From positions 4,992,001 to 5,056,000 of the forward strand of contig OZ245742.1 in the NCBI GenBank assembly GCA_965227295.1: a DNA stretch of 64,000 nucleotides, read 5' to 3'. Both the position numbers and the translations under genes were made by a program. Source of the DNA: Leptonemataceae bacterium (GTDB lineage Bacteria > Spirochaetota > Leptospiria > Leptospirales > Leptonemataceae). Below are positions 38,291 to 41,639 of the stretch, one piece after another (the stretch's first letter is position 1; each line of letters begins with the position of its first letter). The notes below the pieces were generated by a model, which was given only the letters and a program-made list of their open reading frames with translations, made no database searches and was not told where the DNA came from.

Positions 38291-38718
38291 TGGACACACG
38301 CCCCTTGCAATTGTGGCCACAACCTCAGGTTTTCTTAATTTCTGCTGGACACCGGTTTGCACCTCACGCCACTTTTGTGCATGTCTGTCTCTGCGCATAT
38401 CTCCGGTTCACATTCCACACAGAGCCGCAGCTCCCGCCCGCCTCAAAAATCGCGCCGCCCCGCTGCGATCGGCGGCAGCGCGTTAGAATCGGCGCCGCCC
38501 TCGCGCCGCGTCCCGCAAAATTCGCCGCCGCCCGCGCGGCTCGCCCGCGTCCTCGGCGGAAGAGGTGCTCTGTTCTCTTTTAACCATCGGCTATGCGCCG
38601 GAACTCCCGCCCCCCGGGACTGAGGTTCGGTCGGTGCTTCAGGGGCCCCGGGGTTACATGTTCAAGGCAGCGCAGCGGGCATGGTTTGCGCCCCGGTTTA
38701 GGTTTTCAGCGCATACTG

Positions 38719-39405
38719 TTAGTCCGCCACGCGGGAGCCACGGTGGTGGTTGTAGCTCCTGCGTTCACCTCGCGCCGCGTCCGTCGTCCAGCAGCGCCGC
38801 ACACAGTCGTTCCAGCCGTCGTTGGCTTCCCGTCGCCGTACCTTAGTCCAGAGTGCCCGCGTTACGAATTCCCATCCGCCGTCACCGGCGGCCTCCGCCG
38901 CATAGCGTCGTTCCAGCTTCGCGCGTAAGCCATCCGAGATCTTGCGGCGGCGGCGCGGCTTCTTCTCCCGTTTGTACATTCGCGCGTGTAGCTCAGCCAA
39001 CTGCTGGTCTACGGCGTGCTTCCACACGAAGCCGTGCCGGTAGGCCAGCTTTACATCGTATTCCGCCGCATTCATTTTCCGCAGACACGTTCGTTCGCAG
39101 CGGGCCCACACTTCCACATTGTCATAGCGCCACAGCCACACCTCTTTCAATCGCATGAGCGTCACGTCCCACGCACTCGCGTTTCGCGGCGGCGCCGGAA
39201 CATCGCGGTGCCGGTAGGCCATCTTGTTGACCGCCGCCACGGCCGCAGCGCCCCAGGTCCGCGGGCGGCGACGCCGCGCGGGTTGATCATCGCCGCGCCG
39301 TCGCTCCGCCGCCCGCCGGCATTGGTAGCGGTTCAACACCGCCGCGTACGCCCGGCGCCGTTTGCGAGCTTCAGCGTCCGCGCTTACGTTTAACTTCATA
39401 TCCAT
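38719..39405 (-). CDS. Hypothetical Arg/Trp-rich basic protein (IS cargo)
   Basis: Overlaps the upstream 105-aa gene; start at ATG 39405 or 39399; periodic Trp residues, very basic. Confidence 0.55.
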   Translation of the reverse strand: MDMKLNVSADAEARKRRRAYAAVLNRYQCRRAAERRRGDDQPARRRRPRTWGAAAVAAVNKMAYRHRDVPAPPRNASAWDVTLMRLKEVWLWRYDNVEVWARCERTCLRKMNAAEYDVKLAYRHGFVWKHAVDQQLAELHARMYKREKKPRRRRKISDGLRAKLERRYAAEAAGDGGWEFVTRALWTKVRRREANDGWNDCVRRCWTTDAARGERRSYNHHRGSRVAD

Positions 39406-39688
39406 ATATCTTACCACGGCGCTCCACAATGTCGATCGCAACTTTCACAATCTCCTCTTCCGAAAGATAGCGGGCCATGTGTGCCACTTCTTTCGTGACG
39501 AGGTAGTGGTTCTCGAACTCCGTCCGCCCCGCTTCGCGAAACGGTTCTTTAAGCTCCACTTCCGTATTGTCCGGCGTGAGTTCCCTGCCCGTCAATGCAC
39601 ACTTGTAATCCTGCTCCTCCATCAAACGCCAAAAGTGTGCGGCGAAAAATTTGAGCGATCGTTCTTCTTGCTTTGCTTTAGCCATCAT
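39371..39688 (-). CDS. Degenerate HNH-like protein, 105 aa (IS cargo)
   Basis: QDYKCALTGRELT...EVELKEP...G...ENHYLV...VAHM...SEEE follows the HNH layout but has EL in place of DH; AAGGAG RBS; overlaps the transposase stop. Confidence 0.6.
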   Translation of the reverse strand: MMAKAKQEERSLKFFAAHFWRLMEEQDYKCALTGRELTPDNTEVELKEPFREAGRTEFENHYLVTKEVAHMARYLSEEEIVKVAIDIVERRGKIYGYEVKRKRGR

Positions 39689-41380
39689 CGTTCTCCTTAA
39701 TAGTTGTTGTCATCTTATTAATGAATGCCGCGCGTTCATCCCGGCTGATCTCGTATTTACCACGCGCCACAAACTCCGGCGCGTCCTCGGTTCGCACGCC
39801 CTCATGTTCGTCCGGCTGGTGCGTATACTCTTCCCAATCCCACGAGTAGAGCACGCCGGGGAGCACCGCCACGTTCCGCCGCACCATCGTTTCGACTCCG
39901 CGATTGCGTTTGATCTCCACGACTTCGGCGAGGCCGAGTTGAGCCCAGCGCCGCGCAATGCGAATCAACAGGTGCGACTGTCTTCCAATATCACGCGCAA
40001 TCCTGTTCACCGACTTCAGTTCCGCGCGGCCGAGCTTCTCCCAGAGCTTAAGTGCTTCGGCGTGATACTTACGCTCGTTCGACCGCCGCCACGCGACGCC
40101 CTCCCGCATGAAAGTCAGCCAGTCCAGGTGCGCCTGTTTCGCCGGGAACAGGTCGTTATCTTCGAATAATTCACGCAATTTGCCGCGAATCTGGCCCCGG
40201 GAATTCGCGAGATCGAGTTTCCCGCGCTCCTCGATTCGAGGCGGTTTATAGCGGTTTTGGGCGATTCTGAGGCGGAGAAACCGAGGGTCCCGGGGCAGCG
40301 ACGCCCCCACCGCCGGACGGCTATATCCGGGGTCTACATTCCCCACAAATCCCGTTTTTCTTAAACTTACTATAGTTTTAAGCCCGTAGACGTGGAGCGC
40401 CTTGAGTCCCGAGTATTCGTTCAGGTAGAGTTGGGAGTATTCCGGCGTGAAGTAGCCGTAAGCTGCCAGGAAGGACAACTTAATCATCCGCTGGTTGCCC
40501 TCGGCCACCTGGTTGTGCACGCCGTTCTTGCACCAGCGGTCTCGTGCCCAAACACTTCGTGACTTGTTCTTAGCGCGTGCGGAGTGATTCACGGCACGAT
40601 GATTCCGGTTGTAGCGCGAGAGCCACGGGTAACCGTCATCCGTGAACGTCGGCGCGTGGTTCGGCAAGAACGTCGTCAGCGGTTCAATGCTGCGTTGCGT
40701 CTGGTCGGGAACGCTGTCGAGTAAGACCGCCCCGCCCTTCAGCGCGATCGTATGCGCCAGCGTTCCAATCTGAAACTTGCCGCGCTCAACCGCTACTTTG
40801 TCGCTCAAGTAGATGCTCGCCGTCTGTCCGCCGTGGCGATGGCGGGAACGTCCGCCGTTACTGCGTTGCGTCGCGGAGAAGAGCGCCAGCGTGTCCATGT
40901 GCACCACCGGCCCGGCCTGTAGCTCCCGCGCATCCGCGTCTTCCGGAAGAACCTCATCACCAAAAGTGCTGGAAATCTCGGTATTTACAAGCTCTCGCAC
41001 CGCCGGCAGGAGGTCGGTGAGCATCAACTGTAAACGCCGCTTAAGTAACAGAGAAGTGGACTTAGAGACACCGAGGCGGCGGCGGATCTGCGCGGCCGAA
41101 ATCATCTGCGGGAACGCCTGCACCGCTTCCGTCAACAGATAGCCGAACGTCCACAGCGGGAGCTTCAAATGATGCAACGGCGTTCCCACCGTGCGCGACA
41201 TCTGGTAATGACAGTCGCCGCACCGAATCACCGTTTCACGATTCGCGACCGGCTTGCACAACTCGCCGCCACACTTTTCGCAGGCGCGCGGGTAGACGTG
41301 CGTCAATAGCTCCTGTGTCAGTTCGGTGTAGTACCGCACGTTAATGTGCGGGAATCGTAAATTAAAGGCGTCCTTGGCCC
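39678..41380 (-). CDS. IS1595-family DDE transposase with a ~215-aa C-terminal extension (start uncertain)
   Basis: Zn ribbon CEKC...CGDC, GTPLHHLKLPL, HTH ISAAQIRRRLGVS, VHMD / FTDDG / HNQVAEG, QLYLNEY. Synonymous differences from copy B in KDAFNLRFPHIN show that coding begins upstream of the GTG at 41339. Confidence 0.88.
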
Positions 41381-41639
41381 CGAGGCCAGAAGCAGCACCC
41401 GTTGCTTTCGCGGCCCCGGGGGGCGGGGTTTGGGCGCTCCGCTTCGAATTGGAAGAGAACAGAGCACCTCTTCCGCCGAGGACGCGGGCGAGCCGCGCGG
41501 GCGGCGGCGAATTTTGCGGGACGCGGCGCGAGGGCGGCGCCGATTCTAACGCGCTGCCGCCGATCGCAGCGGGGCGGCGCGATTTTTGAGGCGGGCGGGA
41601 GCTGCGGCCCTGTGTGGAATGTGAACCGGAGATCTAAAA

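Follow-up and report, generated by a model that had tools for sequence, protein, structure and literature searches.

A putative three-gene transposition head with a nested insertion sequence in an IS1595-related family of Leptospirales

The window analyzed here, a stretch of 64,000 nucleotides from a Leptonemataceae bacterium, harbors a genuine mobile element, whose IS1595-related family is undescribed and present across the Leptospirales. With a probability of about 0.65, we regard this element as the transposition head of the family, characterized by a core of three genes, a nested short insertion sequence (IS), insertion at the end of MBOAT genes and tandem stacking. IS1595 elements are seen as simple insertion sequences with one gene and, in some cases, passengers, and the family departs from this picture in its three-protein core, its nested IS, its long coding repeats and its single gene-end target. 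The three-gene module, the MBOAT targeting and the nested forms were not found described in the literature, and a named ISfinder entry for the short form is possible. The features of the window are listed in Table 1.

Table 1. Features of the element and its surroundings, in positions of the window
Feature	Position	Strand	Remarks
Gene G, 175 aa, DUF6908-like	35213..35740	+	points towards distal repeat arm
Block F, outer part, beyond intron	36170..36305	.	followed by 12-nt tandem repeat, 36112-36173
Group II intron in block F	36306..38305	-	RT/maturase ORF 36407-37720
Block F, inner part, conserved, non-coding	38306..38398	.	flanks distal repeat arm
IRL, distal left arm of long inverted repeat	38399..38579	.	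180 of 181 bases equal to right arm
Trp-rich protein, basic, 240 aa from TTG	38719..39441	-	ORF, cluster alignment
HNH homologue without catalytic His, 105 aa	39371..39688	-	ORF, homologue alignment
Long transposase, 553 aa from GTG	39678..41339	-	ORF, Pfam, conservation, structure model
Internal copy of short form's left end, ATCCGGGGTCTACATTCCCCACAA	40325..40348	.	inside transposase ORF
IRR, transposase-proximal right arm of long inverted repeat	41453..41633	.	inside open transposase frame
8-bp spacer CTAAAACT between long element and short IS	41634..41641	.	one copy of short IS target duplication
Short IS (element B), 1321 bp	41642..42962	-	complete; 24-nt ends match at 21 of 24 positions
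Second duplication copy CTAAAACT	42963..42970	.	last 8 bases of MBOAT gene, stop codon included
MBOAT gene, 462 aa, ending in VYFQF and stop	42963..44351	-	insertion target; stop codon directly abuts IS end

An extended transposase and its two partner genes

The arms of a long inverted repeat enclose three overlapping minus-strand genes, encoding a transposase, the HNH homologue and a basic Trp-rich protein. Beyond its GTG, the transposase frame stays open for 98 more codons to the outer end of the repeat at 41633, giving an open frame of 651 aa. The Pfam model DDE_Tnp_IS1595 (PF12762) matched the protein with 22.5 bits (E 1.2e-4); the gathering score is 27, so that this match is borderline when taken alone. 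Among 25 full-length long homologues, which share 25-46% identity in an alignment of the C-terminal extension, 19 matched the model at E<=1e-3 (best 2.2e-12). Precomputed matches to PF12762 were also found on most of 120 listed homologues, including some that are 56-61% identical over 93-98% of the protein. IS1595 transposases use a catalytic D, D, E (or N/H) motif with K/R seven residues after the third position. At D149, D234, E280 and K287, conservation across the 25 homologues is 90% or higher, and from this conservation and the spacing we infer that they are the catalytic DDE and K residues. The IS1595 relationship proposed in the preliminary description is thus upheld by PF12762 in the window protein and its homologues and by the nearly invariant D, D, E and K columns. 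IS1595 transposases also carry an N-terminal zinc-binding motif. Here a zinc ribbon is predicted from C20-x2-C23 and C40-x2-C43; two of these Cys columns (129 and 132) are nearly invariant, and Pfam zinc-ribbon models reached only E 0.05, in a sister copy. An N-terminal helix-turn-helix is located at residues 80-96.

The C-terminal extension of 215 aa (residues 339-553) is predicted to hold a winged-helix DNA-binding domain at about residues 414-496. Its AlphaFold2 model has a pLDDT of 83.9. A Foldseek search gave best matches at E 0.02-0.1, mostly winged-helix regulators, and none at E<=0.001. Most of the best 50 matches in VIA-align were likewise winged-helix regulators, covering model residues 76-158 with Z of 5.8-4.5, which are weak fold matches (Z below 8). 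In the ESM Atlas, scores did not exceed 0.82 and winged-helix and RepL were the only leads. The extended transposase of more than 550 aa with an HTH-like C-terminal part was correctly recognized beforehand, and the stretch then quoted (residues 443 onward) falls inside a confidently modelled helix-turn-helix and beta-hairpin.

The ORF of the HNH homologue overlaps the transposase stop by 11 nt and is preceded by an AAGGAG Shine-Dalgarno sequence; through these two features it is translationally coupled to the transposase. Among 20 sequences of the family, 27 of the 105 columns are invariant, including CALTGRELTP..TEVEL..P..GR..N.Y. The window protein matched no Pfam family at E<=0.1, with no match to Pfam HNH up to E<=1, and no PHROG family; two family members had no Pfam match at E<=1. 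Homologues from Planctomycetota prophages are true HNH proteins, with 22.3-23.6 bits for Pfam HNH (PF01844, cut-off 21.4 bits) and PHROG matches down to E 9e-13, and the HNH homology is visible solely through these intermediates. The likeness to phage HNH endonucleases (PF01844; PHROG HNH, endonuclease VII) amounts to 34-38% identity over 67-72 residues with the prophage proteins, with CALTGRELTP, a Pro, a Gly and the motif Asn in common. However, all 20 transposon-borne proteins have EL where the true HNH relatives have DH, so that the general-base His is replaced by Leu, and the last Asn/His position is also changed. The protein thus has neither the catalytic His nor a direct match to an HNH profile, in agreement with its earlier designation as HNH-like and catalytically degenerate.

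The Trp-rich ORF overlaps the 105-aa ORF, and its likely start is an ATG at 39405 (228 aa). The protein has 11 Trp, 59 Arg+Lys and a pI of 11.0, and Trp and Arg motifs (RTW..K(M/L)RYRH, W..RE..L.KMN and HG..W) are conserved across the 13 clusters of its family. Its model is all helical with low scores (pLDDT 62, pTM 0.22), and no usable match was found in the ESM Atlas. Searches of Pfam, NCBIfam and PHROGs returned no match for the HNH homologue, the Trp-rich protein or the extension, and no known transposition accessory family in the profile libraries matched either small protein. Complex prediction of the extension and the Trp-rich protein with the HNH homologue as partner gave a score of 0.22 (mark 0.32).

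The trio is kept at three other places in the genome and also in other Leptospirales genomes. All four HNH-homologue matches in this genome lie directly 3' of a long transposase. At 18 spirochaete loci from other genomes, 17 of them with upstream sequence, the C-terminal domain directly precedes the HNH homologue in 16 of 17; in the remaining one just the N-terminal part was detectable. The Trp-rich gene then follows at 9 of the 18. A second family of the order, in which the transposase is 55% identical, has its genes in the same order. The two small genes therefore co-occur with the transposase clade, and the proposal survived the refutation test set for it, namely that they would not be conserved with that clade. 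The same conservation overturns their description as cargo: they belong to a conserved core beside the transposase, and the real cargo of sister copies lies beyond the trio.

The nested short form and its MBOAT target

Typical IS1595 elements are near 1 kb, with short terminal inverted repeats and a single ORF. The short form of the present family fits this description (1245-1321 bp, 24-nt ends, one ORF), whereas the long form departs from it with repeats of 181-386 bp and three core genes. The two forms are nested. The first roughly 1.25-1.3 kb of the long head constitute a short IS, with a right end common to both forms and a second end inside the transposase gene; this internal end encodes ..GNVDPG.., where the short-form transposases stop. 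Some sister short ISs reproduce the first 1246 bp of a long element at 100% identity. In this genome, 8754-9999 and 5924296-5925541 are both 100% identical to 5896423-5897668, and 34459-35704 is 100% identical to 10008-11253. Short-long pairing of the same kind occurs four times in a same-genus genome. The preliminary description had overlooked the adjoining short IS, the internal end in the transposase gene, the tandem spacing and the MBOAT target.

In the window, element B adjoins the long element and is its nearest relative, with 85.6% identity to the matching part; all others reach at most 65% over the head region. The ORF of its transposase (41640-42893) has a stop codon completed by the flanking target. 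IS1595 elements generate an 8-bp direct target duplication. Such a duplication was found for the short ISs and not for the 3.2-kb long unit. The sequence CTAAAACT occurs twice in the window, once on each side of element B, with no third copy there, and a sister short IS (35713-36967) has TGTTCTAG on both sides. Tandem elements are spaced by exactly 8 bp at all five junctions in this genome and at all seven in the same-genus genome.

The right end starts directly after the stop codon of an MBOAT gene at 8 of 8 junctions, in one orientation, in four genomes. The occupied MBOAT genes belong to at least five clades, and orthologous genes are empty in this genome. Comparison of empty and occupied sites revealed about 8 kb of upstream synteny that ends exactly at the stop codon. 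The clades, the empty orthologues and the conserved upstream synteny rule out that the MBOAT gene is part of the element. When the empty MBOAT orthologue of this genome was compared with two occupied loci, no synteny reappeared over the 12 kb that follow. In the same-genus genome, sequence of the downstream flank is found at distances of 2.4 Mb and 129 kb, and none of the empty-site comparisons yielded a downstream junction for the far boundary. Synteny around the MBOAT gene of the window is not retained in two same-genus genomes. In the second family, the one junction read lies 2 nt past the stop codon of a non-MBOAT gene, and a search for long repeats there found none.

The long inverted repeat, its flank and competing readings

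The two 181-nt arms are 99% identical, with a sole mismatch at 38423. A gapped alignment stretches the inverted repeat to about 220 nt at 93.7%, and on the left-arm side weaker similarity runs onward to about 38618. The outer end of the right arm, read towards the element, is ATCTCCGGTTCACATTCCACACAG, and a third copy of this arm lies in direct orientation at 42782-42962 (85% identity). The repeat-bounded unit measures 3235 bp and, with its genes open and its repeat matched at all but one base, is an intact copy. Its repeats are unusually long, as had been stated, and 181-386 bp proved typical of the family: two sister elements in this genome have 217-bp repeats at 100%, and six elements in other genomes have long repeats of 244-386 bp. 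Each far arm is 94-100% identical to the near arm of its own element and about 80-85% identical to other copies in the same genome. Because the best match is the own element's near arm, the far arm is not an independent foreign copy, and a remnant of a different copy is ruled out. Of the independent insertion considered in the preliminary description, the foreign copy is thereby excluded, but the far arm could be a self-derived inverted duplication.

The interval 38399..41633, given there as a transposon, is correct for the repeat-bounded unit, but repeated and conserved DNA continues past both of its ends. At the distal side this is block F, which follows the distal arm in all seven long elements examined, those of other genomes included. 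Such a constant block would be unexpected if the repeat-bounded unit hopped to new sites. Read towards the element, block F contains an ATG in frame with the open frame of the repeat. We rejected an outward-read gene in block F, since the genomes differ there by a 1-nt indel and the frame meets a stop after 18 codons. The group II intron within it is a separate mobile element, with four copies in the genome. Both in this genome and in a same-genus genome, gene G is found 0.5-1 kb past block F. Contigs from two DNA-type sequencing runs of one study, which may be the source sample, bridged the MBOAT/short-IS and F/repeat junctions, and no joint in them skipped the short IS or the long element. 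No RNA sequencing runs containing the stretch were listed.

These observations bear on a plain autonomous transposon whose 181-bp arms are its working ends and whose 3235 bp move as a whole, with block F hitch-hiking or coincidental. The near-perfect arms speak for it, both finishing in the terminus that is also present at short ISs whose duplications are proven. So does the co-evolution of the ends, since seven long elements keep their own arm pairs at 94-100% and differ from one another by about 15-20%, and cargo of variable size lies invariably between the arms. However, no 8-bp duplication was found at any long element whose flanks were read; in the window, the left flank is CTGCGCAT and the right flank CTAAAACT. 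The genome has no second copy of the unit of the window, and the distal flank is the same block F in every case, so we consider a plain transposon unlikely. Both the missing duplication and the constant flank speak against the proposal of the 3.2 kb as the moving unit, and independent movement of this copy is unproven.

A composite is a possibility to be taken seriously, although we do not favor it. The movers would then be the short IS and large composites between two direct short-IS copies (a long head and a short copy), the inverted arm with F and G would be an arm of an internal inverted duplication of the IS 5' region, and the element in the window would be a stranded head that lost its right-hand short copy. 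Identical ISs at both ends were indeed found in sister arrays, where the short IS at the array start is 100% identical to the preceding long head in six pairings (two in this genome, four in the same-genus genome). Every outer junction joins a right end to an MBOAT stop or, across 8 bp, to a short-type end. The array end in this genome, TGTACTAG, matches TGTTCTAG at the MBOAT start in 7 of 8 bases. Furthermore, arms of about 2.2 kb (repeat, F, tandem repeats and G) are 99.7-100% identical around a 7.7-kb center, and the gene caller's 427-aa short transposase starts at an ATG within F. However, no right-hand short copy was found for the element of the window, and the composite leaves the origin of the internal palindrome unexplained. 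It also rests on the parsing of two genomes of one genus, and the last 13 kb of the contig are a 100% duplicate of an inner region, so that the array of this genome may partly be an assembly effect.

Proposed mechanism, related systems and distribution

In our preferred reading as a transposition head, the transposase would cut an ATCTCC-type right end together with either the internal end, which releases the short IS, or a more distant end. The element would insert at the final 8 bases of an MBOAT gene and create an 8-bp duplication. Because this duplication regenerates the target, the same site could be used repeatedly, and such reuse would build arrays of about 85-100 kb, as implied by our parse of the arrays. 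The winged-helix extension and the two partners would be the best candidates for recognizing the MBOAT 3' coding sequence or controlling end use. A targeting role of the partner proteins, as suggested in the preliminary description, is a plausible hypothesis, and gains plausibility from the striking site specificity of the family. Short ISs without the extension or partner genes occupy the same target. Site choice therefore does not require the partners in cis, although they could act in trans.

Alternatively, the extension and the two small proteins might be linked passengers with another role, for instance in regulation, addiction or anti-defence, with the DDE core alone cutting, joining and picking the site. 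The short ISs that have proper duplications in the same target without these genes are consistent with this, as are the relatives of the HNH homologue in Planctomycetota prophage replication regions, where no transposase was detected nearby, and the lack of a match between either small protein and a known transposition accessory family. However, gene order and tight coupling are kept at 55% transposase identity in two families while the genes beyond the trio vary, the HNH homologue is strongly constrained in its invariant columns, and those short ISs that are 100% identical to a long head might be supplied in trans. We therefore doubt that these proteins are passengers.

Two transporter ISs of the IS1595 family that carry passenger genes, tISCpe8 of Clostridium perfringens and MTnSag1 of Streptococcus agalactiae, are described in PMC5704250; their repeats measure 25 bp, and one gene serves transposition. 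The wider idea of IS1595 members with passenger genes is attributed to Siguier, Gagnevin and Chandler (2009) in PMC3129680. As far as these accounts go, the present family resembles tISCpe8 and MTnSag1 in its IS1595-type DDE transposase, 8-bp duplication, terminal inverted repeats and genes between the ends. It differs from them in repeats of 181-386 bp that include the 5' coding part of the transposase gene, in the 215-aa extra transposase domain and two further conserved genes, in the short IS nested in the head and in the targeting of one kind of gene end.

The family also shows similarities with Tn7 and IS30. Like Tn7, which inserts downstream of glmS as directed by TnsD, it inserts site- and orientation-specifically right behind a conserved gene, at its 3' end, and leaves the gene intact; in both, coding sequence could be the recognition site, a multi-protein module is present, and defence or resistance genes are carried. 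The likeness is behavioral only. Among the three core proteins, Pfam and NCBIfam gave PF12762 alone, with no TnsA, TnsC-type ATPase or TniQ/TnsD, the core has no ATPase gene, and the catalytic protein belongs with IS1595 transposases and not with the TnsB/Mu type; the 8-bp duplication and the repeated tandem insertion at one site are further differences. IS30 targets the inverted repeat of a resident copy and forms tandem dimers with a fixed short spacer. The arrays resemble these dimers in their head-to-tail copies with a fixed spacer of a few bases, but here the spacer is the 8-bp target duplication, equal to the last 8 bases of the MBOAT gene, and the transposase belongs to another family. 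Reuse of the regenerated target accounts for the 8-bp spacer as well as end-targeting does.

More speculatively, and on balance improbably, an IS1595-type transposase may have become independently Tn7-like, with the extension, the dead HNH protein and the Trp-rich protein as a target- and end-choice apparatus that reads ..YFQF-stop and builds islands. Islands of about 85-100 kb would then gather metal-resistance, defence and polymorphic-toxin genes in Leptospirales. If true, this would be a second route, unrelated to Tn7, to a safe-site island-building strategy. With one DDE protein and two small partners, the family is a compact system in which to study the acquisition of sequence-specific targeting by a DDE transposase, and it may have reused an inactivated HNH fold as a presumed DNA-binding or adaptor protein.

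Beyond the trio, sister copies hold 0-14 kb of varying cargo, which always lies inside the arms and ends at an inverted copy, 181-386 bp long, of the 5' end of the same element. It comprises an OLD-type ATPase with a UvrD helicase (Gabija-like defence), or P-type ATPase/RND/MerR metal-resistance genes. The family marks where metal-resistance and phage-defence accessory genes accumulate in Leptospirales, and accounts for large repeat-rich regions that break assemblies of the order. A plasmid collection gave one match, on a Leptospira interrogans replicon, at 35.5% identity and with no annotated feature beneath. Of 151 genomes of the order, 57 contain the HNH-homologue family, which is thereby represented in 11 of 34 genera. 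The C-terminal domain was detected in 21 of the 151 genomes; 20 of these are positive for the HNH homologue with the matches side by side, and in the 21st the domain lies at a contig edge. In the second family, the HNH-homologue gene was found in 42 of 109 other genomes sampled, so the family is common, though unannotated.

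Conserved core of the long element

The long element is intact and belongs to an IS1595-related family whose core of three genes is conserved; a long transposase, an HNH-like protein and a Trp-rich protein are encoded between its inverted arms. The preliminary description had reported a long inverted repeat, which proved to be real: the 181-nt arms are 99% identical with a sole mismatch at 38423, and the similarity covers about 220 nt at 93.7% when gaps are allowed. Its assignment of the transposase to the IS1595 type was borne out by a match to Pfam DDE_Tnp_IS1595 (E 1.2e-4), but the score of 22.5 bits is below the cut-off of 27. 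PF12762 matched 19 of the 25 full-length long relatives scanned, D149, D234, E280 and K287 of the long transposase fall in conserved alignment columns, and the N-terminus carries CxxC...CxxC plus a helix-turn-helix. The description of a three-gene mobile element held in that the element is real and intact and has a conserved core, whereas the label "cargo" for the partner genes and the assumed boundaries were wrong in detail.

Coordinates of features in the window and of related copies in the same genome
Feature	Reference	Position	Strand	Details
Far (left) arm	window	38399-38579		181 nt
Near (right) arm	window	41453-41633		181 nt; transposase-proximal
Long transposase ORF	window	39678-41339	-	553 aa from GTG
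Open stretch upstream, long	window	41340-41633		
HNH-like ORF	window	39371-39688	-	105 aa; 11-nt overlap with transposase stop; AAGGAG site ahead
Trp-rich ORF	window	38719-39441	-	240 aa; start probably ATG 39405
88-aa ORF	window	38357-38623	+	from block F through far arm into element, then stop
Short IS	window	41642-42962		complete
Open stretch upstream, short	window	42894-42962		
MBOAT gene	window	42963-44351		Pfam MBOAT 95 bits
Block F	window	left of far arm		conserved; split by group II intron
Group II intron	window	36306-38305	-	2.0 kb; reverse transcriptase/maturase ORF 36407-37720
12-nt tandem repeat	window	36112-36173		~5 copies; between block F and gene G
Gene G	window	35213-35740	+	175 aa; points at far arm
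Short ISs	genome	8754-9999; 34459-35704; 35713-36967; 36976-38220; 5924296-5925541		
Long element	genome	10008-19888		9.9 kb
Long element	genome	5896423-5913758		17.3 kb
Long element	genome	5925550 to contig end		

A Foldseek search using a model of the extension, the C-terminal 215 residues of the transposase (pLDDT 83.9), returned no match at E 0.001; the best rows (E 0.02-0.1) were mostly winged-helix regulators of the CodY, MarR, Z-alpha and ArsR types. The top 50 VIA-align matches were also mostly winged-helix regulators, at Z 5.8-4.5 over model residues 76-158. Judged from the model, the extension likely holds a winged helix, with weak scores. The HNH-like protein has 29 relative clusters, with 27 invariant columns across 20 sequences, and the Trp-rich protein (11 Trp, 59 Arg+Lys, pI 11.0) has 13 relative clusters with conserved motifs and a poor structure model.

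Relatives of the transposase numbered 180 at E<=0.001 among 8000 scored candidates and include long (~520-635 aa) and short (~420 aa) forms; the named sources are Leptospirales or Spirochaetia MAGs, Leptospira species and Turneriella. A scan for the HNH-like locus in one genome per species returned 24 loci, 18 from spirochaetes and 6 from Planctomycetota. The gene was directly preceded by the transposase extension in 16 of the 17 spirochaete loci with upstream sequence; at the 17th, only the N-terminal part of the transposase was detected ahead of it. The HNH-like gene was followed by a detected Trp-rich gene in 9 of the 18. Across the order, the HNH-like profile had matches in 57 of 151 genomes, covering 11 of 34 genera, and a single-sequence query with the extension had matches in 21 of 151 genomes. 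Twenty of these 21 were also positive for the HNH-like gene, with the matches side by side, and the match in the last lay at a contig edge. The Planctomycetota loci, on MAG contigs, are prophage-like, with a primase-helicase upstream and a ParB-methyltransferase downstream, and their homologues are true HNH endonucleases. In the alignment, the phage HNH group has DH whereas all transposon-borne proteins have EL. A small Trp-/Arg-rich ORF overlaps the upstream part of the HNH gene in another frame at the Planctomycetota loci.

A literature search found no published account of the three-gene module. PMC5704250 describes tISCpe8 and MTnSag1, which are IS1595 elements with passengers, as having 25-bp repeats, 8-bp duplications and a circular form.

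Short IS and the coding content of the repeat

The transposase ORF at 41640-42893, beside the long element, is a truncated copy within a complete short IS, a one-ORF form whose 24-nt ends match at 21 positions. The short IS is bordered on both sides by CTAAAACT (41634-41641 and 42963-42970), which occurs only these two times in the 64-kb window, and the outer copy is the final 8 bases of the MBOAT gene including its stop codon. A copy of the left end of the short form was found inside the long transposase gene at 40325-40348, where it encodes ..GNVDPG.., the stopping point of short transposases. Therefore, the opening 1.3 kb of the long element is built like a short IS nested within it.

In all 13 copies examined, at other loci and in the same genome, the open transposase frame begins with the first repeat codon, in phase with the stop codon that ends the adjacent upstream gene or IS. 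Many of them lack ATG, GTG and TTG codons close to where the open stretch begins. Where the element end is preceded by block F, the conserved DNA beyond the far arm, there is an in-frame ATG 6-10 codons out from the end, and the 427-aa short transposase of the gene caller begins at an ATG within block F. The open frame from the first repeat codon and the ATG start inside F therefore make the long repeat largely 5' coding sequence. The putative 88-aa ORF crossing the far arm repeats the N-terminal extension of the transposase and then stops. Long repeats in other genomes (244-386 bp, 87-100%) extend into the conserved N-terminal coding region, as revealed by inverted N-terminal matches. In a second family of the order, the gene order is kept at 55% transposase identity and a short-plus-long tandem is present; no long repeats were found there.

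Insertion behind MBOAT genes and tandem arrays

Each of the 12 MBOAT paralogues in this genome has ..(Y/F)F(Q/V)F-stop as its terminus; two of the genes are occupied. The right end starts directly after an MBOAT stop codon at six more loci in three other genomes, giving 8 of 8 junctions, all in a single orientation. A tree of 18 MBOATs required five label changes for the occupied genes, all forced by well-supported branches. For three MBOATs occupied in other genomes, the close orthologue in this genome is empty. Upstream of one of them, about 8 kb is syntenic between the empty and occupied genomes, and the synteny stops exactly at the stop codon. On these grounds, the MBOAT belongs to the host and offers, at its 3' end, a preferred site with a fixed orientation. 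This specificity adds interest to the candidate role of the partner proteins in target choice. At the one junction read in the second family, the right end lies 2 nt past the stop of a 640-aa non-MBOAT gene (G024:C1 ~738900-740850), and the 8-mer TTGTAGTT was found ahead of right ends at two loci of that genome.

Sister copies were located by tblastn and by scanning for element ends in the single 5.94-Mb contig, of which the window is C1:4992001-5056000. The three core genes have one order in all four long elements of the genome, including that of the window, and the sister transposases and HNH-like proteins share 55-63% identity with the window versions. Both complete sister elements have 217-bp inverted repeats at 100%, and their cargo differs. 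One carries an OLD-type ATPase/TOPRIM protein (AAA_15 + OLD TOPRIM) and a UvrD-type helicase, a Gabija-like pair, together with a TPR protein; the other carries a P-type ATPase, ArsP, an RND pump with CusB-like and outer-membrane (OEP) partners, a MerC-like protein and MerR. The contig closes with 13,009 bases (5925542-5938550) that are 100% identical to 5896415-5909423, and its first 367 bases are likewise 100% identical to 5915634-5916000; the cause is either duplication in tandem, over about 29 kb, or a misjoin at the contig ends, within the transposon array. Because of the former identity, the element starting at 5925550 could be either a genuine duplicate or an artefact of assembly.

Two short ISs match the first 1246 bp of the 17-kb element at 100% identity; a third does so with the opening 1246 bp of the 9.9-kb element. 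Tandem neighbours are exactly 8 bp apart at all five junctions in this genome, and the spacers have the same sequence as the 8 bases that end the local MBOAT gene (AGTTTTAG in the window, TGTTCTAG in the sister array and TGTTTTAG in a same-genus genome). This identity fits repeated use of a target regenerated by each duplication; targeting of a resident end would give the same picture.

Far side and putative composites

No 8-bp duplication was found at the long units, and no far boundary of the inserted DNA was found at any locus compared. Block F follows the far arm in 7 of 7 long units from two genomes, and its first 38-110 nt are conserved between genomes; gene G lies 0.5-1 kb beyond F in this genome and the same-genus genome. 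In both genomes, every array-start short IS matches, at 100% identity, the head of the long element before it. The lack of duplication at long units, the position of F and these identities suggest large composites in the order long head, cargo, far arm, F, G, centre, G, F and short copy. Such composites would be bounded by direct IS copies, and the long arm would belong to a palindrome of about 2.2 kb in their interior. Their putative centres carry more cargo: one encodes a 2184-aa pretoxin-HINT protein, and another has cation-efflux and RND genes. The window element does not fully fit this model, because the right-hand short copy is absent.

The intron ORF matched RVT_1 (114 bits) and GIIM (30 bits), and the intron RNA matched Rfam models for D1-D4-6 (130.7 bits) and domain V/VI (33.9 bits). 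From its sequence, the intron may in fact begin with GTGCGCC at 38290. The genome has four copies at 97-99.8% identity, of which the window copy and that at genome 32259-34398 both lie inside block F beside an IS end. About eight other copies or fragments of gene G occur in the genome; a paralogue scored 26.1 bits on DUF6908 (cut-off 27). Gene G adjoins giant ORFs: in the window, a 4322-aa ORF (21499-34467, minus strand) with no Pfam match and a 96% identical 10.8-kb duplicate at genome 750433-761279; in a sister array, the 2184-aa ORF with the pretoxin-HINT domain. At genome 4552317-4553328, about 78 copies of a 13-nt unit related to the 12-nt repeat form an array that adjoins one further copy each of G and the intron; perfect inverted repeats of 1516 bp enclose it.
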